From Vicinamibacterales bacterium (GTDB taxonomy: Bacteria > Acidobacteriota > Vicinamibacteria > Vicinamibacterales > SCN-69-37): a stretch of 64,000 bases of DNA. Positions 3,423 to 51,097 of the stretch are shown piece by piece (the first letter of the stretch is position 1; each line of letters starts with the position of its first letter). Location of the stretch: contig JBKJHW010000046.1 of NCBI GenBank assembly GCA_046598935.1, positions 7,071-71,070 on the forward strand. Reading direction: 5' to 3'. Below the pieces are notes generated by a model. That model searched no databases. It had not been told where the DNA came from and was given only the letters and a program-made list of their open reading frames with translations. A program made the translations under genes and the position numbers.

Positions 3423-3767
3423 GGGGGCGACTTGGCTTCGACGGGGGCAAGGGATCGTTGGATGCATGCCGAGCTCCATTGACTCGTTAAACCGATGGAA
3501 AAACCACTAACTGCGAACACGCAGCTAGCCCTCGCGGCCTAACGGCACGCGACGTTCACCCTGACCAGCCTGCGGGTCGGGACTGAATGTCATTTCAGCA
3601 GGCTGGCCCCGGCTCGAGTCCGTGTTGTCGGGGCGAGATTCAGCGGACTAGCGGTCGGCGCTTTCGCCGCACTTATACGTCGATCGCGAAATTTGAAGCA
3701 CGGCTACGCATGTAGATTCTGACGACGACAGGCCTTTCGGACGCGGGTTCGACTCCCGCCGCCTCCA
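3423..3767 (+). ncRNA. ssrA: tmRNA (SsrA)
   Basis: The 5' GGGGGCG pairs with the 3' CGCCTCC, including the G3:U alanine identity pair. The T-arm GGGTTCGACTCCCGC is present. The tag reading frame GCG AAC ACG CAG CTA GCC CTC GCG GCC TAA (3513..3542) encodes ANTQLALAA. CCA is not encoded. Confidence 0.9.
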
Positions 3768-3783
3768 CTTTCTTCTCACTTCG

Positions 3784-15841: not shown

Positions 15842-16864
15842 CTATTCGGCGCGAAGCGCCGCATCCCCAGGCACGAAGTGCGTGAACCCGCCGCCGAGCG
15901 GGCCCTCATCAAGCGTGAGAGGCGGCGCTTTGGTCAGCTCGCCGATGCAGGAGACCGGCGTATGGCGCGCGGCGATCCGCTCGAATCCGCGGCGCCGACG
16001 GGGCGGAACTGCGAACAGCAATTCGTAATCTTCGCCGCCCCGAAGGGCCTGTTCGAGCGTGGCTTCCGGATGCACCGGTACCTTAGAAGAGATGACCGTC
16101 GCGCCAGTGCGCGAGGCTTCTGCTATCTGCGTGACACCGTCAGCCAAACCGTCGGAAAGGTCCATACAGGCCGACGCTAACCGATTCGAGGCAACTTCTC
16201 TCGAGACGTTCAGAAGCAACACAGAGCGTTCGTACGACTTCGCAGGGTGTTCGTACGAGGGTTCGGACGAACCCTCAGAGTGTTCGTACGAACGCTCTGA
16301 TTCGTACGAACCCCCTGGCTCGTACGCACGTCGACGTTCGAGCTCTGCAGCGGCTCGCCCGAGCATCCCTGTGACGTACAGGAGGTGGCCCGCGGATCCT
16401 CCGCTTCTGGTGAGAATGCGGCGCCGGCGCGCGGTGCCGATGAGCGTGATGTCGATGATGATCGGTCCCGGCGAACTCGAGATGTTGCCGCCGATGATCG
16501 TGAGCTTCGCCGATTTCGCCAACGTCAAGAAGCCATCGATGAGCGCGTCGAAATCGTCGAGCGCCAATGCGCCCGGCAGGGCGAGGCTTAACGTCGCCGC
16601 GCGCGGCGACGCGCCCATCGCCGCGAGATCACTGAGGTTGACGGCGAGCGATTTCGCGCCGATCTCGCGCATCGAGTTCCAACGGCGATCAAAGTGCACG
16701 CCTTCGATCTGACAGTCGGTCGTGACGACATCGAGCTCGCCCCGTTCAGGTTCGATCACCGCGGCATCGTCGCCGATGCCGATGTGCACCCATGCGGGCG
16801 CATCGCCGGCGCGTTCGCGGATGCGCTCAATGAGGCCGTGCTCGCCGATGTGGGAGATTTTCAC
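15842..16864 (-). CDS. thiL: thiamine-monophosphate kinase
   Basis: Contains KISHIGEHGLIERIR, IGDDAAVIEP, DLAAMGA and MDLSDGLADG. GTG start. It carries a repeat-derived (S/A)YE-rich insertion, described under the repeats. Confidence 0.85.
   Translation of the reverse strand: MKISHIGEHGLIERIRERAGDAPAWVHIGIGDDAAVIEPERGELDVVTTDCQIEGVHFDRRWNSMREIGAKSLAVNLSDLAAMGASPRAATLSLALPGALALDDFDALIDGFLTLAKSAKLTIIGGNISSSPGPIIIDITLIGTARRRRILTRSGGSAGHLLYVTGMLGRAAAELERRRAYEPGGSYESERSYEHSEGSSEPSYEHPAKSYERSVLLLNVSREVASNRLASACMDLSDGLADGVTQIAEASRTGATVISSKVPVHPEATLEQALRGGEDYELLFAVPPRRRRGFERIAARHTPVSCIGELTKAPPLTLDEGPLGGGFTHFVPGDAALRAE
16222..16327. repeat. nested palindromic repeat inside thiL (five copies of the self-complementary octamer TCGTACGA or a near-copy)
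   Basis: A perfect 16-bp inverted repeat, CAGAGCGTTCGTACGA (16222..16237) with TCGTACGAACGCTCTG (16284..16299). An inner hairpin GAGGGTTC-GGAC-GAACCCTC (16257..16276). TCGTACGA occurs at 16230, 16251, 16284 and 16302, with a degenerate TCGTACGC copy at 16320. Confidence 0.85.
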
Positions 16865-16904: not shown

Positions 16905-17121
16905 CGATTCACCGTGAATTGAGTGAATGCGGCACTATCGAAGAATCCCGCTTTGCCGTGTGGGGAGGTCGAACGGACCTGTTAGACAGGTGGAACCGCT
17001 ATAAAGACTGCGCTTTAGGCTTCCTCACCACGGAGGCATGCTCACCACGCAGCGTCGCAGCTCGCTTGGTATTAAAAAACATCGGCCCAAGCGACACTCC
17101 AACCATCACGAACAAAGCAGG
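16905..17121 (-). ncRNA. ssrS: 6S RNA (SsrS); ends approximate (+/-15 nt)
   Basis: The minus strand reads ...GGGCCGATGTTTTTTAATACCAAGCGAGCTGCGACGCTGCGTGGTGAGCATGCCTCCGTGGTGAGGAAGCCTAAAGCGCAG.... This parallels E. coli 6S (GAGCCGAUAUUUCAUACCACAAG...GGUGAGCAUGCUCGGUCCGUCCGAGAAGCCUUAAAACUGCG). A closing stem TTCGTGAtggTTGgAGTG / CACTCAAtTCACGg is possible. It lies immediately downstream of zapA, as in E. coli. Confidence 0.7.
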
Positions 17122-17127
17122 AAGACA

Positions 17128-20921: not shown

Positions 20922-21000
20922 GTACGAAAGAAAACGACATCGGGTGTCGTTTCCGCCGTGCGGACCAACGGAAACGACACCCGATGTCGTTTTCTTCTAC
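20922..21000. repeat. family-A composite palindromic element (two inverted AAACGACA-YCGGG-TGTCGTTT hairpins)
   Basis: The sequence is GAAAACGACATCGGGTGTCGTTTCC..N16..GGAAACGACACCCGATGTCGTTTTC. It lies between the pheS start and the DUF4242 stop codon, and the stop codon sits inside the element. Confidence 0.85.
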
Positions 21001-21269
21001 TCGGCCGTCGTCGGATCGATGATCGCGTGCACGCGTGCGACTGAATTGGCGGGGAAGCCGCCTTGCTTCGCGTGCTCGCGGACGGCCTGCTCGTTCGGCG
21101 CGTTGTAGACGCAGTAGATCTTGTTGTCGGTGACGTAGCTGTGCACCCACTGAATCGACGGCCCCATGCCGCTCAGGACGCCGCATGATTTCTGGGAGAT
21201 GCCTTTCAAGTCGGCCGCAGAGAGATTACCGGCACCAGGGATTTCGCGTTCGATGACGTACTTCGGCAT
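20997..21269 (-). CDS. DUF4242 domain-containing protein
   Basis: Sequence MPKYVIEREIPGAGNLSAADLKGISQKSCGVL...IYCVYNAPNEQAVREHA matches the family. Confidence 0.7.
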   Translation of the reverse strand: MPKYVIEREIPGAGNLSAADLKGISQKSCGVLSGMGPSIQWVHSYVTDNKIYCVYNAPNEQAVREHAKQGGFPANSVARVHAIIDPTTAE

Positions 21270-21313
21270 GGCGGTGCTCCTAAGGGGAACGCTGCGATCT
21301 TAACCGCACCCTG

Positions 21314-21350
21314 ACAAAAAAAGAAGGCGCCCACCGAAGTAGGCGCCCTC
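21314..21350 (-). terminator. Rho-independent terminator of the infC-rpmI-rplT operon
   Basis: The minus strand reads AGGGCGCCTAC-TTCG-GTGGGCGCCTT followed by CTTTTTTTG. This is an 11-bp stem, a TTCG tetraloop and a U-tract. Confidence 0.75.
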
Positions 21351-21357
21351 AAGACTT

Positions 21358-21384
21358 CTGCCTTCTGCCCTTTGCCTTCTGCCC
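21358..21384. repeat. family-D G-rich repeat copy (GGGCAGAAGGCAAAGGGCAGAAGGCAG on the minus strand)
   Basis: It directly follows the rplT stop codon. It matches the arms of the 24645..24819 element at 24 of 27 positions. Confidence 0.7.
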
Positions 21385-21747
21385 TTACTTGGTCGCGACC
21401 GCCGCCTTGGCCTGCTCGGCGACCTTCGCGAACGCGGTCGAGTGACGCGCGGCCAATTCTGCAAGGCTCTTGCGGTCTAACCCGATCCCGGCCTGTTTGA
21501 GGCCGCGGATGAGCTGGCCGTAGGTGAGGCCATTCTGGCGCGCGGCTGCGTTGATGCGGACGACCCAGAGCCTGCGGAAGTCGCGCTTTTTGCGGCGGCG
21601 TCCCGAAAACGCGTAGTTGTCGGCCTTCGCAACGGCTTCCTGAGCGGCCTGGTACAGCTTGCTCTTGGTGGCGTAAAAGCCCTTCGCGCGCTTCAGCAGC
21701 TTCTTGCGCTTCGCGCGGCGGACTGTTCCTCGTTTAACTCGCGGCAT
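21385..21747 (-). CDS. rplT: 50S ribosomal protein L20
   Basis: Sequence [32 protein letters not shown]... matches L20. Confidence 0.95.
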
Positions 21748-21762
21748 TGGTCTAAATCCTTC

Positions 21763-21960
21763 TTAGGCGTACGGCAGCATGCGCTTGACGCGCCGCTGAT
21801 CCGATTCGTGAACCACCACCGACCCGCGGGCGTTGCGCTTGCGGTTGGTCGGCTTGCTGGTGAGAATGTGGCGCTTGAACGCCTGGGCTCGCGTGAACTT
21901 GCCCGTCGCGGTCTTCTTGAAGCGCTTGGCCGCGCCCCGATGTGTTTTCAGTTTCGGCAT
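21763..21960 (-). CDS. rpmI: 50S ribosomal protein L35
   Basis: Sequence [33 protein letters not shown]... matches L35. Confidence 0.95.
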
Positions 21961-21980
21961 GGTCGTTCTCTCTCGTCCTT

Positions 21981-22586
21981 CTAGTCGTTCTGTTCGGTCG
22001 TCTTTGATGACTGCTCGGCTTCCTGCTGCCGTGCCGCCACCCGTTTCGCCGCGCCGGGTCTCGGCGCGAAAATCGTGTGCAGCTGATTGCCTTCCTGTCG
22101 CGGTGTCGATTCAATCACCGCGATGTCGTCCACTTCGTACATCAACCGCTCCAGGATCTTCATGCCGATTTCCGGGTGAGCGTTTTCCCGCCCGCGGAAG
22201 AAGATCGTGGCCTTCACTTTGTCGCCGTCAGCCAGGAAGCGCTCGATGTGCTTCTTCTTGAACTGATAGTCGTGCTCGTCCACCTTCGGCCGGAACTTGA
22301 TCTCCTTGACCAGGATGACCTTCTGGTGCTTCTTGGCCGAGCGGGCCTTCTTCTGCTGCTCGTACTGAAACTTCCCGAAGTCCATGATCCGGCAGACCGG
22401 CGGAACGGCCGATGCCGAGATCTCAACGAGATCGAGGCCTTTGGCTTTGGCTATCGCCAGCGCTGCCGGCGGGGCCATGATGCCCAGCTGCTCGCCGTCG
22501 TCGTCGATCACGCGAATTTCGCGTACCCGAATGCGTTCGTTGATCCGCGTGCGATCGTCCCTACGCGGCGTGCGATCAAAAGCGAT
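21981..22586 (-). CDS. infC: translation initiation factor IF-3, non-canonical ATC start
   Basis: The track ORF starts at a GTG inside the conserved N-domain (…[13 protein letters not shown]|IDDDGEQLG). The frame is open up to a TGA at 22601..22599. The only plausible start upstream of RINERIR is ATC at 22586, preceded by GAGGGGG 7 nt upstream. Confidence 0.8.
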
Positions 22587-22611
22587 AAGGCAACCCCCTC
22601 AAAAAAACCTG

Positions 22612-24630
22612 TTACGACCGCTCGGCGTTTTCACGCCGCGCGGCTTCGACAAACGCGCCGACCGGGGACCCGCCCTGATCGCCGCCCGCCCGAGTTCTGA
22701 CAGACACCGTCCCCTCCGCTACTTCGCGGTCGCCGATGACCAGCATGTAGGGGACCTTCTGTAACTGGGCCTCTCGAATCTTATAACCAATCTTCTCGTT
22801 GCGCCCGTCCACAGTGGCCCGGAGGCCGGCGGCCTCGAGCTGGGCCAGGACCTGGTGCCCATATTCCGCCTGCCGGTCGGCCATGGGCATGACCCGGACC
22901 TGCTCGGGGGCCAGCCATAGGGGGAATGCCCCCGCGAAGTGCTCGATCAGGATGGCAATAAACCGCTCAAAACTGCCAAAAATCGCCCGGTGGATGACCA
23001 CAGGCTGGTGCTCGGTGTTGTCGGCCCCGACGTATTTGAGGCCGAATCGGGCCGGCATCTGGTAGTCGAGCTGGATCGTGCCGCACTGCCATTTCCGGCC
23101 GATCGCGTCCGTAATGTCGAAGTCGATCTTGGGCCCGTAGAAGGCGCCGTCGCCTTCATTGATGACGTAGCTCACGCCGGCCGCCTCGAGCGCGCGCTTC
23201 AGCTCGGCTTCGGCGTGATCCCAGGTCGCGCGCTCGCCCAGAAACTCCACCGGCCGCGTCGACAATTTCACTTCGTACGGCAGCTTGAAGTCGCCGTAGA
23301 CGCGCTTGACGAGGCCCAGTAACGCTTCAACCTCAGCGCCGATCTGCGACTCCATCACGAAGCAATGCGCGTCGTCCTGCGAGAACTGGCGGACGCGCGT
23401 GAGGCCGCCGAGCACGCCGGATGCCTCGTTGCGATGGAGCGCGGTCTGCTCGTGAAGACGCAACGGCAGATCGCGATAGCTCCGCGTCTCGCTGCCGAAC
23501 ACCAGCATATGGCCCGGGCAGTTCATGGCCTTCGTCGCCATATCGTGTGCGTCAGTGCCCGCCTGCCTACCAGCTTCACCAGTGCCCGCCTGCTGAGGAA
23601 CTCCACCAGCTTTGGCGGCGTCCGCAAGATCACGCGATTGCACCAGGAACATGTTCTCGCGGTAGTGCGCCCAATGGCCTGACGTTTCCCACAGCGCTTT
23701 GTTGAAGATGATCGGTGTCTTCACCTCGGCGTAGCCGGCGGGGAAGAGCACTTCGCGCATGTAGTTGGCGAGCAGGTTATAGACGAGCGTGCCCTTGCCC
23801 AGCCAGAACGCCGCGCCGGGCGCCCACTGGTGGAACATGAACAGGCCGAGGTCCTTGCCGATCTTGCGATGGTCGCGCTTCTTCGCTTCCTCGACCTGCG
23901 TGAGGTGCGCTTTCAGCTCGTCTTGGTTGAAGAAGGCCGTGCCGTAGATGCGCTGCATCGGGGCATTTTTCGCATCGCCCTTCCAGTACGCGTTCGACGT
24001 GTTGAGCAGCTTGAACGCCTTGAGGCTTCCTGTCGAGGGCACGTGCGGGCCGACGCAAAAGTCGACGAAGGTGTCGCGGTCCTTGATCGTGTAGCAGGAC
24101 ACGTCTTTCTGTCCGGCCGTCTTCTCTTCGATCAGTTGCACCTTGAGCGGCTCGCCGCGCTGCCTGAAAAACTCGATCGCGTCCTCGCGCGGCCAGCTCT
24201 GGCGTTCGTACACCAGGCCCTGCTTGGCGAGTTCCAGCATCTTCTTTTCGATCTTCTCGATGTCTTCCGGCACGAACGGGCGCGGGACGACGAAGTCGTA
24301 GAAGAAGCCTTCGTCGGTGGCCGGACCAATGCCGCACTGCACGCCGGGGAAGAGTTGGGTGACGGCCGCCGCGAGCAGATGCGCCGTCGAATGACGGACC
24401 ATCATCAGCGCGTCTTTGCCGGTGTCGCCGTCGGCACTTCCCGGAATGACGAGCTTGAGGCTCACGTCTTCGTTGAGGGGATAGCTGAGATCGACCAGCC
24501 TGCCGTCGACCGACGCGCCGATGGCCTTCTTCAACACGCTCATGGGGAGAGCGGAGCTCGCGAATTCACGAACCGTCGTCCCAGGAGCGATGCTCCTCTG
24601 TGATCCGTCAGGCAGAGTGATGGTTACCAT
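22612..24630 (-). CDS. thrS: threonine--tRNA ligase
   Basis: Contains the TGS domain (MVTITLPDGS), the editing domain (HSTAHLLA) and class II motifs (MNCPGH, RVRQFSQDDAHCF). The ATG at 24630 is preferred over 24657. Confidence 0.9.
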   Translation of the reverse strand: MVTITLPDGSQRSIAPGTTVREFASSALPMSVLKKAIGASVDGRLVDLSYPLNEDVSLKLVIPGSADGDTGKDALMMVRHSTAHLLAAAVTQLFPGVQCGIGPATDEGFFYDFVVPRPFVPEDIEKIEKKMLELAKQGLVYERQSWPREDAIEFFRQRGEPLKVQLIEEKTAGQKDVSCYTIKDRDTFVDFCVGPHVPSTGSLKAFKLLNTSNAYWKGDAKNAPMQRIYGTAFFNQDELKAHLTQVEEAKKRDHRKIGKDLGLFMFHQWAPGAAFWLGKGTLVYNLLANYMREVLFPAGYAEVKTPIIFNKALWETSGHWAHYRENMFLVQSRDLADAAKAGGVPQQAGTGEAGRQAGTDAHDMATKAMNCPGHMLVFGSETRSYRDLPLRLHEQTALHRNEASGVLGGLTRVRQFSQDDAHCFVMESQIGAEVEALLGLVKRVYGDFKLPYEVKLSTRPVEFLGERATWDHAEAELKRALEAAGVSYVINEGDGAFYGPKIDFDITDAIGRKWQCGTIQLDYQMPARFGLKYVGADNTEHQPVVIHRAIFGSFERFIAILIEHFAGAFPLWLAPEQVRVMPMADRQAEYGHQVLAQLEAAGLRATVDGRNEKIGYKIREAQLQKVPYMLVIGDREVAEGTVSVRTRAGGDQGGSPVGAFVEAARRENAERS
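23553..23612. repeat. imperfect 27-nt tandem repeat inside thrS
   Basis: CAGTGCCCGCCTGC occurs at 23553 and 23580, giving a 27-nt (9-codon) period. ACCAGCTT is also repeated. The region encodes ...QQAGTGEAGRQAGTD... just before the MNCPGH motif. Confidence 0.7.
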
Positions 24631-24644
24631 GAGCGTGCCTGATA

Positions 24645-24819
24645 GGGCAGAGGGCAAAGGGCAGAGGGCATAGGTAGAGGAAACAGGAAAGAGGCCAGGT
24701 CAGAGGTCATAGATGAATCGTTGAGGGAACAGGGAGCCATAGAAGCCAAGCCTTTGACCTTTTTCCTATGACCTGGCCTTTGTCCTCAGTCCTCTACCTC
24801 TGATCTTTGCCCTCTGCCC
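24645..24819. repeat. family-D long imperfect inverted repeat (about 175 nt) in the thrS 5' region
   Basis: Four arm pairs are visible: GGGCAGAGGGCAAAG (24645) with CTTTGCCCTCTGCCC (24805); AGGTAGAGGA (24672) with TCCTCTACCT (24790); GGCCAGGTCA (24693) with TGACCTGGCC (24769); GGTCATAG with CTATGACC. Confidence 0.8.
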
Positions 24820-24848
24820 TTGGCCCTTTCAAGCGAGAGGTCAAAGGT

Positions 24849-24925
24849 TGGTAGGCACGCACGGACTCGAACCGTGGACCTCCTGCATGTCAAGCAGGCG
24901 CTCTAACCAGCTGAGCTACGCGCCT
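24849..24925 (-). tRNA. tRNA-Val (anticodon GAC), CCA encoded
   Basis: The minus strand folds as AGGCGCG-TA-GCTC-AGCTGGTTA-GAGC-G-CCTGC-TTGACAT-GCAGG-AGGTC-CACGG-TTCGAGT-CCGTG-CGTGCCT-A-CCA. All four stems pair. Confidence 0.9.
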
Positions 24926-24960
24926 ATCTGTCGCGAATTCCGCGTCAAATACGAACGACA

Positions 24961-24966
24961 AGTATA
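24961..24966 (-). promoter_or_regulatory. candidate -10 box TATACT for tRNA-Val
   Basis: The minus strand reads GGGCTATACTTGTC, about 35 nt upstream of the tRNA 5' end. It shares the 12-mer GCTATACTTGTC with the 6S promoter. Confidence 0.45.
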
Positions 24967-25065
24967 GCCCAATCGCCCGATATCAAATAGCAAAGGGCCG
25001 CCCCGGTGAACCCGAGACGGCCCCAATAACCAGCTAACCAGATGGTCAGCTAACCAGATTCACGC

Positions 25066-25341
25066 CTATTTATTCACTGCCACCTTCAACGCTTTGCCCG
25101 CCGTGAACCGGGCCACCCGGCGCTTCGGAATCTTGACCGTTTTCCCGTTCTGCGGGTTGCGGCCCAGACGCGCCTTGCGGTTCGACGTCTTGAACGTGCC
25201 AAAGCCGACGAACGTAACGGGCTGACCCTTCTTCAGCGACTTGACGATCCCGTCAATCAGGGAATCAACGGTGGCTGCCGCCGCCGTCTTCGACAATCCG
25301 CAATCCTTGGCAATCTTCGCGACAATTTCCTGCTTGTTCAT
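25066..25341 (-). CDS. hup: HU family DNA-binding protein
   Basis: Sequence MNKQEIVAKIAKDCGLSKTAAAATVDSLIDGIVKSLKKGQPVTFVGFGTFKTSNRKARLGRNPQNG matches HU. Confidence 0.9.
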   Translation of the reverse strand: MNKQEIVAKIAKDCGLSKTAAAATVDSLIDGIVKSLKKGQPVTFVGFGTFKTSNRKARLGRNPQNGKTVKIPKRRVARFTAGKALKVAVNK

Positions 25342-25347
25342 CCGGGT

Positions 25348-25376
25348 ATTCTAGCCCGGCGATAATTTTCGTACAA
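25348..25376 (-). promoter_or_regulatory. sigma-70-type promoter TTGTAC-N17-TAGAAT giving a leaderless hup mRNA
   Basis: The minus strand reads TTGTACgaaaattatcgccgggcTAGAATacccggATG. The A of the ATG is the 7th nt after the -10 box. Confidence 0.65.
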
Positions 25377-25528
25377 CCATCCGCGCGCGGCTACTTGGCC
25401 AGGCACGTCCCCGGAACAGTGCGCACCGTCTTCACGTGCAGGTCGTACACCACCGCCGCCGGCGTCGTGACCTTTGATGTCTGAGCACCCTCGGCGGCTT
25501 TTGAGCACACGGTGCGCAGTGGCGCGCC

Positions 25529-28828: not shown

Positions 28829-28898
28829 AAGAATAAACGACATCGGGTGTCGTTTTCGCCCGCATTCCTCGAAAACGACACCCGATGTCGTTTATTCT
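28829..28898. repeat. family-A composite palindromic element
   Basis: The sequence is AAGAATAAACGACATCGGGTGTCGTTTTC..N13..GAAAACGACACCCGATGTCGTTTATTCTT. The outer 14-bp arms are perfect. It lies in the divergent region between the phosphodiesterase gene and ruvX. Confidence 0.85.
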
Positions 28899-28905
28899 TT
28901 TCGCT

Positions 28906-29343: not shown

Positions 29344-30344
29344 TGCTGCGCAGACTCACACTGCTCGCCGTCGTGCTGTGTGTGTGCGGCGCCGGCGGCG
29401 CGTGGTGGGCGTGGAGTCAGTTCGACACGCCGTACCGCGGTTATTCCGATCCTGAAGTGTTTGTCGACCTGCCCACGGGCTCGTCAACGGCGGATATCGC
29501 CGGACGGCTTTCGGCGATGGGCGTCGTTCGCGATCCGCTGATGTTCCGGCTCGCGGTTCGGGCGGCGAAGGCCGACCGGCACTTACAGGCCGGCGAGTAC
29601 CGCTTCTTCGACGCGTCGTCGCCGAATCAAATCATCTCGCGGCTTCGTCGGGGCGACACGTTCAGCCACACCGTCACATTCCCGGAGGGTCTGACGATTC
29701 GCGAGATGGGCGCGATTTTTGAGCGCGAAGGGCTCGGCACCGCGCAGGAGTTCATACGCGCGGCGGCGGATCGAGCGTTGATCGCCGATCTGGATCCGGC
29801 CGCGAAGAACCTCGAAGGCTTTCTTTTTCCGAGCACATATTCGCTGCCGCGCCGCGCAGGCGCCGCCGGCTTCGTGCGCGCGATGGTCAAGGAATTCAGA
29901 AACAATATTTCGGCCGAGCCTCTGCCCGACGGCATCGCATCGTTGCGCGATCTCGTCACGCTCGCGTCGATCATCGAGAAGGAAACTGGAAACTCCGCGG
30001 AACGCGCGACCGTTGCCGCCGTGTACCACAATCGCCTGAGGATCGGCATGCCGCTGCAGTGCGATCCGACGGTGATCTACGCGATGATGCTGCGCGGGCG
30101 CTGGGACGGCAATATCCGCAAGCGCGATCTGCAGATCGATTCGCCGTACAACACCTACAGGTACCCGGGGCTGCCGCCGGGCCCGATCGCCTCACCGGGC
30201 CGCGCGACGCTCGATGCCGCGCGACGTCCGGCCGACGTGAACTATCTCTATTTCGTCAGCCGCAACGACGGCACGCATGTGTTCGCGCGGACGCTCGACG
30301 AACACAATCGAAACGTCCGCGCTTTCCAGAGATTAAGGAATTAA
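29343..30344 (+). CDS. mltG: endolytic murein transglycosylase MltG (YceG-like)
   Basis: Contains a transmembrane anchor, TFPEGLTIREM, ASIIEKETG and QCDPTVIY...YNTYRYPGLPPGPIASPG. Confidence 0.85.
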   Translation: MLRRLTLLAVVLCVCGAGGAWWAWSQFDTPYRGYSDPEVFVDLPTGSSTADIAGRLSAMGVVRDPLMFRLAVRAAKADRHLQAGEYRFFDASSPNQIISRLRRGDTFSHTVTFPEGLTIREMGAIFEREGLGTAQEFIRAAADRALIADLDPAAKNLEGFLFPSTYSLPRRAGAAGFVRAMVKEFRNNISAEPLPDGIASLRDLVTLASIIEKETGNSAERATVAAVYHNRLRIGMPLQCDPTVIYAMMLRGRWDGNIRKRDLQIDSPYNTYRYPGLPPGPIASPGRATLDAARRPADVNYLYFVSRNDGTHVFARTLDEHNRNVRAFQRLRN

Positions 30345-30383
30345 AGTCGGGAGTTAATTTGTAATTAACTCCCGACTTTAATT
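30339..30383. repeat. family-B palindromic element (perfect 21-bp arms)
   Basis: The sequence is AATTAAAGTCGGGAGTTAATT-tgt-AATTAACTCCCGACTTTAATT. It begins at the mltG stop codon. Confidence 0.9.
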
Positions 30384-30452
30384 GTTTCCAGTACGCTCGC
30401 CGCGCCAGCCGGATGGCTGGAAAAGACCAAGAAAGAGCAATTAGCGGCAATT

Positions 30453-30489
30453 AATGTCGGGAGTTAATTGGCAATCAACTCCCGACTTT
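30453..30489. repeat. family-B palindromic element (18-bp arms, 2 mismatches)
   Basis: The sequence is AATGTCGGGAGTTAATTG-g-CAATCAACTCCCGACTTT, about 22 nt beyond the nadK stop. Confidence 0.85.
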
Positions 30490-50327: not shown

Positions 50328-51097
50328 ATCTGATTCTTATAGAGCCTGCAGAAGTCAGATCTGACGGGACCGCGCGCATAGCCGGTCCGCAGGCCGATCA
50401 CATCCGGAGAGTCCTCAGGAGTTCTCCCGGCCACGAGCTCCGCGTCGGCGTGATTGATGGTCCCGCCGGGACCGCCACCATCACCGCCGTGACCGACAGT
50501 TTTGTTGAGCTGGCCTGCCGGCTCGATGCTGAACCGCCGCCCCGCCCGGAAGTCGATCTCCTCCTCGCATTGCCTCGACCCAAAGTGATGCGCCGCCTCT
50601 GGGCGCAACTGGCCGCGCTGGGCGTCGGCCGGATCATCCTCACAAACGCAGAACGCGTCGAGCGCGATTACTTCGATACCCACATCCTCGAGCCCGAAAC
50701 CTATCGCTCGCTCCTGATCGAGGGCCTGCAACAGGCGCGCGACACGCGTCTCCCAGTTGTCACCATCCACAAACGGTTCAAAGTGCTGATTGAAGACGAG
50801 TTGGACGCGATGTGCCCTCAGCGCAGGCGCCTCGTCGCCCACCCCGGGAGCCAGCCAGAAATAGGGGTCGGGTGTTATTTCGAAATAACACCCGACCCCT
50901 ATTTCCCCTATTTCCCCGACCCCTATTTCCGCGATTCGCGTACGCTTCTCGCGGTTGGGCCCGAGGGCGGATGGAACGCGTTCGAGTTAGGGATGCTCGA
51001 GGCGCGCGGATTTCGGCCGATCAGCCTCGGTCCCCGATCACTACGGACCGACACGGCGTGTATTGCATTGCTCACGCTCGTTCACACGCGCCCGTAG
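50324..51097 (+). CDS. rsmE: 16S rRNA (uracil1498-N3)-methyltransferase
   Basis: Contains a PUA-like N-terminus (ADHIRRVLRSSPGHELRVGVIDG), LLLALPRPKVMRR and LLAVGPEGGW...LGPRSLRTDTA. It carries a repeat-derived insertion. Confidence 0.8.
   Translation: MNLILIEPAEVRSDGTARIAGPQADHIRRVLRSSPGHELRVGVIDGPAGTATITAVTDSFVELACRLDAEPPPRPEVDLLLALPRPKVMRRLWAQLAALGVGRIILTNAERVERDYFDTHILEPETYRSLLIEGLQQARDTRLPVVTIHKRFKVLIEDELDAMCPQRRRLVAHPGSQPEIGVGCYFEITPDPYFPYFPDPYFRDSRTLLAVGPEGGWNAFELGMLEARGFRPISLGPRSLRTDTACIALLTLVHTRP
50858..50929. repeat. family-C palindromic element inside rsmE (48-nt perfect palindrome plus reiterated arm end)
   Basis: GAAATAGGGGTCGGGTGTTATTTC|GAAATAACACCCGACCCCTATTTC spans 50858..50905. 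It is followed by CCCTATTTC and CCCGACCCCTATTTC. Confidence 0.9.

Follow-up and report, generated by a model that had tools for sequence, protein, structure and literature searches.

A tandem-heptamer palindrome between tRNA-Val and thrS in a Vicinamibacterales bacterium

We analyzed a 64,000-nucleotide (nt) stretch of DNA, here called the window, from a Vicinamibacterales bacterium of the phylum Acidobacteriota (GenBank assembly GCA_046598935.1, contig JBKJHW010000046.1, positions 7,071 to 71,070 of the forward strand). The subject is the minus-strand spacer between a tRNA-Val gene and thrS, the gene for threonine--tRNA ligase (ThrRS). This spacer holds an imperfect hairpin of about 198 nt with arms of tandem heptamers, and we are confident in assigning it, as a local case, to the heptamer-repeat palindromes of Acidobacteriota spacers. 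The element is dispensable across the clade, yet constrained in its own sub-lineage, where alignments indicate that it changes 3 to 4 times slower than silent codon sites. Judged from its sequence, it is neither a ThrRS-binding operator nor a terminator. The reading that we prefer, at about even confidence, is a transcribed heptamer-repeat palindrome within a tRNA-Val/thrS co-transcript that is probably processed by an RNase III-type enzyme or modulates translation of thrS, a gene without a Shine-Dalgarno (SD) site.

The two gapless arms of the hairpin (Table 1) are 81 nt each, 75% complementary, and separated by 36 nt; core arms at 24644-24667 and 24797-24820 are 92% complementary. In the thrS-sense RNA, the 5' arm can be read as 11 units in a 7-nt register (GGGCCAA GGGCAGA GGGCAAA GAUCAGA GGUAGAG GACUGAG GACAAAG GCCAGGU CAUAGGA AAAAGGU CAAAGGC). 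The units are GGGCARA and its complement, and the register degenerates toward the center. Tandem Repeats Finder reported period 7/14 arrays at 24644-24674 (4.4 copies) and 24797-24829. An exact GGGCAGAGGGCAAAG lies at 24645-24659 on the plus strand and at 24805-24819 on the minus strand. With up to 3 mismatches allowed, this sequence has 10 matches in the window against an expectation of 1.7; none of 100 shuffles has as many. The apical sequence between the arms was found elsewhere solely in syntenic copies (at locus L001 of a relative and, for its 3' half, at the truncated locus L206). The ACCUAUGCCCUCUGCCCUUUGCCCUCUGCCCUA at the end of the 3' arm is the best-conserved stretch among relatives.

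In folding predictions, the thrS-sense RNA (24850..24600) had a minimum free energy (MFE) of -111.9 kcal/mol, compared with -75.9 +/- 4.4 kcal/mol for dinucleotide shuffles (z = -8.1; 0 of 200 as stable). For the plus strand, the value was -122.7 kcal/mol (z = -7.2). In the MFE structure of the thrS-sense RNA, 69 pairs are formed, and the stem base, at 24638, lies 8 nt before the thrS AUG. Much of what a first-pass annotation of the same DNA had described is borne out by these results. It had proposed a 175-nt inverted repeat, slightly smaller than the one found here, with arms of reiterated units, and a very stable structure beside the thrS start. It had also placed the end of the array 15 nt before the ATG, which is correct, although the predicted stem base is nearer. 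Its remark that no SD site is visible stands in the sense that thrS has no clear one, but an AGG at about -12 is present as the sole SD-like element.

On the plus strand, which is the template strand for thrS, positions 24645-24669 read GGGCAGAGGGCAAAGGGCAGAGGGC, a quadruplex-type G3N4 x4 motif; the mRNA-sense arm has three G3 tracts only. The motif suggests a possible quadruplex role. Quadruplex formation would not be the property that the versions of the element share, because some of them, such as that of L002, have GG tracts only.

To put numbers on the constraint, we compared spacer identity with identity at fourfold-degenerate (4-fold) sites of thrS. The loci of relatives had been gathered by exact-protein lookups and one metagenome scan, and those ThrRS homologues that carry names are annotated as Acidobacteria or Vicinamibacterales. 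Between the window and L001, the spacer is 92% identical (218 nt aligned), as opposed to 69% at 4-fold sites (binomial P = 3e-16). The same comparison gave 89% versus 72% for the window and L206 (P = 8e-6), 90% versus 72% for L001 and L206 (P = 6e-7), and 83% versus 60% for L207 and L210 (P = 2e-10). As a yardstick of constrained noncoding RNA, we used the 6S RNA gene of the window (16941-17126, minus strand; Rfam score of 74 bits), which is 93% identical to its L001 copy. The hairpin is likewise 93% identical between the window and L001, and the tRNA promoter/leader is 87% identical. Six other intergenic regions of L001 cannot be aligned to the window. Conservation is highest in the pyrimidine arm beside the start codon, where the window and L210, whose ThrRS is 82% identical, share an identical ACCTATGCCCTCTGCCCTTTGCCCTCTGCCCTA. 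A recombination tract was ruled out as the cause of this conservation because the adjoining first 40 thrS codons have only 47% third-position identity between the window and L001.

Among relatives, tRNA-Val is kept directly upstream of thrS almost everywhere. The spacer between them is hypervariable: over 40 loci its length varies between 9 and 236 nt, and 15 of the loci have a spacer of less than 40 nt without structure. The element is present in L001 (ThrRS 88% identical), in L206 (92%; contig broken in the loop), and in L207 and L210 (81 to 82%), and a shorter version with AAGGCAS units occurs in L002 and L003 (81%). The number of units in the arrays differs between relatives. The element is absent from L204 (88%; spacer TTTTTAACGGACCG-ATG), L205 (86%; ATTTTTCGACCG-ATG), and L208 and L211 (81%; ACTTTTACTC-ATG), in all of which the thrS ATG lies 10 to 14 nt from tRNA-Val. 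Most of 40 more distant relatives lack it or have unrelated sequence in its place. The states of presence and absence are interleaved on a neighbor-joining tree of ThrRS (L204, being mis-framed, was uninformative there), a pattern that implies at least two losses or gains.

Short spacers leave thrS in an uncommon position. In many Vicinamibacteria, among them L134, L145, L147, L204, L205, and L208, only 9 to 14 nt separate the tRNA-Val 3' end from the thrS start codon, and no SD site is present. Once the tRNA 3' end has been processed, the thrS mRNA of such relatives would be nearly leaderless, which is unusual for an essential synthetase gene.

Distant relatives can carry hairpins of other heptamers in the same spacer: GAAGTCA (L124), GAAGTTC (L125, L128, and L137), CACTTTC/AACTTTT (L129 and L151), GUCUCUA (L154 and L158), UUCUAGA (L162 and L170), and GCUGAGA (L168). 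Others have GC-rich hairpins that resemble repetitive extragenic palindromic (REP) sequences, or nothing. Two GC-rich hairpin motifs, ATTCGACTCGCC...GCTCGCTCATGGCAGGCC and CCTTCGCTC...GAGCTACGGTTGGCGAGCC...GCGAAGGTGGAC, recur in this spacer in other genomes (L126, L130, L141, L142, L212; L129, L132, L133, L135, L146, L155, L156), a pattern that suggests that REP-like families, too, establish themselves downstream of tRNA-Val. Short tandem arrays and palindromes are likewise concentrated in the spacer upstream of tRNA-Val. This spacer has TAACCAGC x3.9 in the window (25027-25057), GGTAATTG in L131 and L150, GGTCGTTC in L154, GAACTCA in L155, and GGATGGT in L158; L136 and L125 are also among the loci with such arrays or palindromes.

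The assignment of the element to a class rests on how its architecture recurs. We scanned species-representative genomes with GGCANARGGCANARGGCANARGGCA (a GGCANAR x3 pattern), and the figures that follow are lower bounds. The 120 matches listed include at least 55 cyanobacterial loci and at least 16 Acidobacteriota loci (Vicinamibacterales, Pyrinomonadaceae, Thermoanaerobaculia, and others). None of the 16 acidobacterial loci listed adjoins thrS. Nine of the 16 have an array opposite a complementary array over a short spacer, (GGCAGAA)n-loop-(TTCTGCC)n, and several of the listed acidobacterial hairpins appear to span the distance from a stop codon to a start codon.

Heptamers also dominate in the relatives themselves. 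Among 72 short tandem arrays of at least three copies in 331 kb of Vicinamibacteria loci, 45 had a period of 7 and 7 more a period of 14. A custom detector run over 466 kb found an inverted partner within 220 nt for 61 of 113 period-7 arrays. The 5' arm of the period-7 pairs was purine rich in 21 cases and pyrimidine rich in 3. This purine-first order belongs to the element itself, whichever way transcription runs, because the order of the arms is identical on both strands of a palindrome. Within a single genome, units vary between loci. In L151, for example, the rpmI-rplT spacer holds an AAUGCAA/UUUGCAU hairpin and the rplT-pheS spacer a CAAUGCC/GCAUUGA hairpin, which starts at the stop codon and ends 4 nt short of the pheS AUG.

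Searching for copies of the whole element by blastn in more than 200 loci of relatives returned arrays only, and the interior (spacer positions 45-175) matched solely the syntenic L001 copy. As the units differ by locus, the recurring feature is a layout of tandem heptamers in palindromic order rather than a single mobile sequence, and the match of the interior to L001 alone agrees with this. We found no paper that joins Acidobacteria with heptanucleotide tandem repeats. Locus-private units, purine-first arms, the filling of spacers from stop to start, and measurable purifying selection may be new at the level of the class, which was sampled here rather than surveyed.

Related arrays were seen in two further settings. 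Each intercistronic spacer of the thrS-infC-rpmI-rplT-pheS cluster can have a heptamer-array hairpin with a unit of its own, as seen in L151 (5915-6011 and 6384-6473) and also in L131 (4875-5054 and 5938-6012), L142 (5746-5829), and L154 (6360-6467). GGGCAGA/AAGGCAG arrays lie in frame inside open reading frames (ORFs) in L106 (5741-5773) and L089 (2330-2383), and the frame stays open in both. One of these arrays is in a porphobilinogen-deaminase-like ORF (...LPVRAEGRGQRAETLEA...), and the other lies within another long ORF (...PPAKAEGRRQKAEGRRQKAEDGDG...).

The closest described kind of element is the G-rich heptameric simple sequence repeat (SSR) of Xanthomonas (GGGAATC) and Nostoc (GGGGAYT), which is intergenic, has about 4 units, and carries a G3 tract in each unit (Rehm et al. 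2015; PMC4692102). In Xanthomonas, 70 to 75 convergent pairs per genome form inverted repeats, and the repeats are transcribed; between related genomes they keep their intergenic position while length and sequence vary (PMC4692102). The G-rich strand is preferentially the noncoding strand upstream of an ORF and the coding strand downstream (PMC4692102). Slippage by 7 nt has been proposed as the reason for the over-representation of heptamers in bacteria (cited in PMC4692102). The arrays of the window are similar in being head-to-tail 7-nt units in convergent arrangement (arms 75 to 92% complementary) with a G3N4 x4 motif, and the thrS and rplT arrays follow the same G-strand pattern exactly. 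They differ in their unit (GGGCARA / AAGGCAG), in their phylum, Acidobacteriota, and in degenerating into a stem that is much longer, at about 80 bp, and has a unique interior. Whereas the Xanthomonas and Nostoc repeats have one genome-wide unit, related acidobacterial units change from spacer to spacer, and many versions have GG tracts only, so the potential for quadruplexes is not shared.

A functional parallel comes from Haemophilus influenzae, where an (ATCTTTC)n SSR in the 5' untranslated region (5' UTR) of hmw1A and hmw2A pairs with a G-rich arm into a long hairpin that lies just before the coding sequence (Rapun-Araiz et al. 2025; PMC12721329). That hairpin is cut by RNase III, the cut raises expression, and repeat number drives phase variation of the surface adhesin (PMC12721329). 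Like it, the thrS hairpin is long, with its base close to the AUG, and would be transcribed as part of a 5' UTR. Unlike it, the thrS hairpin has two array arms instead of one and precedes a housekeeping synthetase gene, itself preceded by a tRNA gene, instead of an adhesin gene.

Tandem heptamers, called short tandemly repeated repetitive (STRR) sequences, have long been known in cyanobacteria. Direct repeats of TAACTGA occur upstream of start codons, often at a distance of a few nucleotides, in Beggiatoaceae, Cyanobacteria, and Bacteroidetes; their function is unassigned, and translational roles (S1, Csp, and Csr) have been proposed (MacGregor 2015; PMC4679880). In Maribeggiatoa, the TAACTGA sets are mostly direct arrays, with 1 indirect repeat among 170 sets (PMC4679880). 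The thrS arrays are likewise tandem heptamers in noncoding DNA a few nucleotides from a start codon. In contrast to the direct arrays of the STRR and TAACTGA kinds, a palindromic arrangement is the rule for acidobacterial arrays. REP units are 20 to 40 nt long, have one conserved sequence per genome, and are spread by the REP-associated tyrosine transposase (RAYT). REP sequences, bacterial interspersed mosaic elements (BIMEs), and REP doublets forming hairpins (REPINs) are transcribed within operons, are tolerated since they fold on themselves, and have been proposed to act on mRNA stability and termination. The window element resembles REP and BIME sequences as an intergenic or intercistronic palindrome within a presumed operon, and it differs from them in its tandem-heptamer arms, its locus-specific units, and the lack of a full-length second copy among the loci compared by blastn.

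Reading along the minus strand, the locus consists of an HU-like gene, a terminator that divides it from the tRNA-Val/thrS unit, a TATACT box, tRNA-Val, the hairpin, thrS-infC-rpmI-rplT, four heptamers, and a second terminator (Table 1). The TATACT box is probably the promoter of the tRNA-Val-thrS transcript. Of 42 related loci, 33 have an exact TATACT no more than 70 nt upstream of tRNA-Val, usually at 33 to 35 nt. The thrS start codon is backed by an N terminus, MVTITLPDG, that is conserved in relatives. In the same operon, rpmI and rplT have AAGGA/AGGACGAGAG-type SD sites.

The rplT stop codon, at 21385, is followed directly by the half array of Table 1, which has no inverted partner. It is the second copy of the arm that the first-pass annotation had noticed, with 92.6% identity to the thrS arm over 27 nt. 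The half array is complementary to the C-rich 3' arm (24637-24680) of the thrS leader in the same presumed transcript, and long-range 5'-3' pairing is conceivable because of this complementarity. At the corresponding rplT end, L002 has a weaker AAGGCAA-type stretch and L001 an unrelated hairpin.

Table 1. Positions of the hairpin and its neighbors in the window
Feature	Position	Strand	Remark
Intrinsic-terminator-like hairpin and U tract	24994..25024	-	Ends upstream HU-like gene; from terminator scan
TATACT box (-10-like)	24961..24966	-	About 35 nt upstream of tRNA-Val
tRNA-Val(GAC), CCA encoded	24849..24925	-	3' end 14 nt upstream of hairpin (stem) base
Hairpin 5' arm in thrS-sense RNA	24754..24834	-	Purine rich
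Apical region between gapless arms	24718..24753	-	Partly structured, unique sequence
Hairpin 3' arm in thrS-sense RNA	24637..24717	-	Pyrimidine rich, ends in ACCUAUGCCCUCUGCCCUUUGCCCUCUGCCCUA
thrS (threonine--tRNA ligase, 672 amino acids)	22612..24630	-	ATG at 24630..24628
Half array of four heptamers (GGGCAGA AGGCAAA GGGCAGA AGGCAGA)	21355..21386	-	Directly 3' of rplT stop
Intrinsic terminator, 12-bp stem and T7	21323..21350	-	Ends thrS-infC-rpmI-rplT unit

In the reading that we prefer, a transcript would run from the TATACT box through tRNA-Val, the hairpin, and thrS-infC-rpmI-rplT to the second terminator. Cotranscription is suggested because the promoter box is conserved, spacers shrink to 9 nt in relatives, and there is no internal promoter or terminator. 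A scan of 21200-25400 gave no promoter-like site between tRNA-Val and thrS and none inside or after the hairpin. Read-through would be needed in the relatives with short spacers, because these leave thrS no room for a promoter of its own. Self-pairing of the inserted RNA would hold the thrS AUG about 20 nt in space from the tRNA 3' end, a separation that resembles the geometry in relatives with 9- to 14-nt spacers. The imperfect duplex of about 80 bp would be a typical RNase III substrate. A cut there would free the tRNA precursor from the thrS mRNA, whose remaining leader, short, pyrimidine rich, and without an SD site, would serve for SD-independent initiation of thrS. A role of the hairpin in processing tRNA-Val is plausible, and we put forward the specific mechanism of processing and translation as a tentative proposal. 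As to origin, the element most likely arose in place by 7-nt slippage and not by transposition, with the arms then made symmetrical by template switching (one arm copied from the other); the template-switch step is our own addition.

Several observations weigh against a function as a processed transcript. Both cotranscription and cutting by RNase III are steps that we infer. The 64-kb window has two array sites, and both are in the thrS operon. The covariation that the first-pass annotation had proposed to look for did not appear: between the window and L001, 63 of 69 pairs are unchanged, 2 one-sided changes keep pairing, 3 one-sided changes break it, and none is compensatory, and between L207 and L210 there is 1 compensatory pair along with 8 one-sided breaks, the sequences being too similar or too rearranged for this test. 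In a four-way alignment of the versions, the arrays alone align. When folding energy and G-U counts were compared between the sense and antisense strands of 20 oriented hairpins, the result was 10 versus 10, i.e., no bias, and GGGCARA hairpins fold slightly better on the antisense strand. Symmetry may therefore be kept at the level of DNA. Strong conservation together with repeated loss is also unusual for an element that benefits its host.

These points lead to the strongest rival, which we regard as a possible but rather doubtful one: that the element is a by-product at the DNA level without an RNA function, a palindrome formed by slippage and template switching that is either harmless or kept for a cruciform, a G-quadruplex, or protein binding. 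The missing folding bias and compensatory changes speak for it, as do the clean loss or gain in close relatives and the same architecture in all gene contexts, with arrays even in frame within ORFs. The heptamer repeats of Xanthomonas and Nostoc, too, have no assignable function (PMC4692102). Against it, the unique interior and the loop are conserved along with the arrays. A neutral element should decay at about the synonymous rate, but the spacer is 92% identical, compared with 69% at 4-fold sites, and other spacers cannot be aligned.

A broader reading, to which we give a low probability, is that in Acidobacteriota, or at least in Vicinamibacteria, heptamer palindromes formed in place serve as general operon punctuation with an own unit in each spacer, the thrS hairpin being one functional instance, in processing, coupling, or translation initiation, of a so far undescribed lineage-wide system and not passive repeat DNA. 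This speculative proposal would take in three traits: the purine arm that almost always comes first, the hairpin that often reaches from the preceding stop codon or tRNA 3' end to 0 to 10 nt from an SD-less start, and purifying selection that holds change 3 to 4 times below that of 4-fold sites.

Termination is the best placed of the remaining alternatives, and it is improbable. Here the hairpin, as a terminator or attenuator, would stop the tRNA-Val transcript and restrict read-through into thrS. It is indeed very stable and directly downstream of a tRNA gene, and in L002, L207, L210, and L125 an additional short GC hairpin comes right after the tRNA. The stem is followed by CCCUAUCAGGCACGCUCAUG, which has no U tract, and the terminator scan finds the two terminators of Table 1 and none at the hairpin. 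There is also no promoter-like site between the hairpin and thrS, and relatives with 9- to 14-nt spacers must read through.

We consider it quite improbable that an upstream ORF (uORF) explains the element, such that translation through the 3' arm unzips the stem and delivers ribosomes to the SD-less thrS start. The start of this ORF would be the AUG of the loop (MAPCSLNDSSMTS...) or the conserved AUG in ACCUAUGCCC, and its stop would overlap the thrS AUG (AUGGUAA). In the window, the frame from the loop ATG covers 24740..24624 on the minus strand and encodes MAPCSLNDSSMTSDLASFLFPLPMPSALCPLPYQARSW, with the stop TAA overlapping the thrS start (ATGGTAA). The frame is open in L001 (9871-10006) despite an 18-nt insertion, and in L206 another stop codon maintains the overlap with the thrS start (AUGCUGA). 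L207 (3970-3999) and L210 (1378-1407) have a 9-codon version, AUG CCC UCU GCC CUY UGC CCU CUG CCC UAA CCA AUG, which encodes MPSALCPLP and ends 3 nt before the thrS ATG. Thus, an end that overlaps the thrS AUG or precedes it by 3 nt is found in five genomes. Yet the A-poor 3' arm is open in all frames by composition alone, so the frames may be due to chance. The conserved AUG is not preceded by an SD site, in L206 the loop AUG is not in frame, and L002 lacks an AUG. The small number of substitutions does not allow synonymous and nonsynonymous patterns to be told apart.

A mobile miniature element, of the MITE (miniature inverted-repeat transposable element) or REP-like type, that targets the 3' flank of tRNA-Val is very improbable. 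Presence/absence polymorphism among close relatives would fit it, as would 89 to 92% identity across genomes in which the flanking thrS third positions are about 47 to 72% identical. In the more than 200 loci compared, though, the heptamer arrays alone match, with the interior found only in the syntenic L001, and neither a target-site duplication nor distinct terminal repeats are recognizable. Hairpins at the same site in other genomes also have unrelated units.

Least probable of all is a dedicated thrS operator, in which ThrRS would bind a tRNA-Thr-like leader structure and repress its own translation as in Escherichia coli, where the operator, tied to thrS, has two anticodon-arm-like stem-loops that ThrRS recognizes. 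The position of the element immediately upstream of the SD-less thrS start, a structured RNA as in E. coli, and its strong conservation within the sub-lineage would suit such a role, and the start region AUGGUAA (24630..24624) resembles the anticodon loop of tRNA-Thr(GGU) (U-GGU-A-A). Unlike the E. coli operator, the element has no anticodon-like loop: AUGGUAA has 0 closing pairs and is not conserved (AUGCUGA in L206), and a search for a stem-closed U-NGU-R loop in four leader versions found none, AUGGUAA being the only such heptamer and L207 and L002 having none. The element is missing, with 10- to 14-nt spacers, from close relatives and from most of the order; unrelated-heptamer hairpins replace it in other relatives, and the same arrays occur at unrelated loci. 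A T-box or another curated leader RNA was rejected as well, as no Rfam covariance model matched at the hairpin. At the gathering threshold, Rfam reported only tRNA, tmRNA, and 6S RNA in the whole window, and an E-value search of 24400-25100 returned only long-hairpin (miRNA precursor) models far below the threshold, which are meaningless.

The three roles that the first-pass annotation had offered are thus partly supported. A thrS autoregulatory leader fails on the relatives without the element (L204, L205, L208, and L211, which break the expected conservation upstream of thrS), on the missing anticodon-arm mimic, and on the Rfam result. A terminator for tRNA-Val fails on the lacking U tract and the negative scan. 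The repeat-element family comes closest to the truth: the tandem-heptamer array and the palindromic architecture recur, but the whole element does not. Nor is it purely a repeat, which the annotation had tied to absence in close relatives and presence at many unrelated loci. The absence and the arrays at unrelated loci were found, but where the element is present, its conservation is far above the synonymous level.

Some other features of the window are recorded here. The public ThrRS record (P0001; 643 amino acids, 100% identical) begins at an internal Met30 (MSVLKK...). This annotated start is 29 codons too short because homologues span the full 672-amino-acid ORF and the N terminus M(V/I)TITLPDGS is conserved; the truncation drops part of the TGS domain. 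A tmRNA gene with the tag ANTQLALAA lies at 3423-3770 on the plus strand. A different palindrome, perfect and nested, AAGAA[A/T]AACGACATCGGGTGTCGTTT[C/T]CG plus its complement, occurs in two copies, at 20928-20996 and 28829-28899. Their arms are 28 to 30 nt long and 100% complementary, and they resemble REPIN-type doublets of a short hairpin. Further unrelated palindromes are at 50858-50905, 30343-30489, and 16222-16330.

For annotation, the analysis removes a tempting but wrong reading of the thrS leader as a ThrRS operator and corrects the public ThrRS start by 29 codons. The over-representation of heptamers in bacteria, still unexplained, extends to Acidobacteriota, where it mostly takes the form of palindromes. 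The element also provides a rare quantitative point: it is as conserved as 6S RNA and changes 3 to 4 times slower than adjacent synonymous sites, yet it is cleanly absent in sister lineages. If such palindromes are not functional, they would be a clean system in which to follow the growth of palindromes by slippage and template switching. If they are functional, for instance as RNase III sites or in SD-independent initiation next to tRNA genes, they would explain how SD-less operons are processed and translated in an abundant soil phylum.

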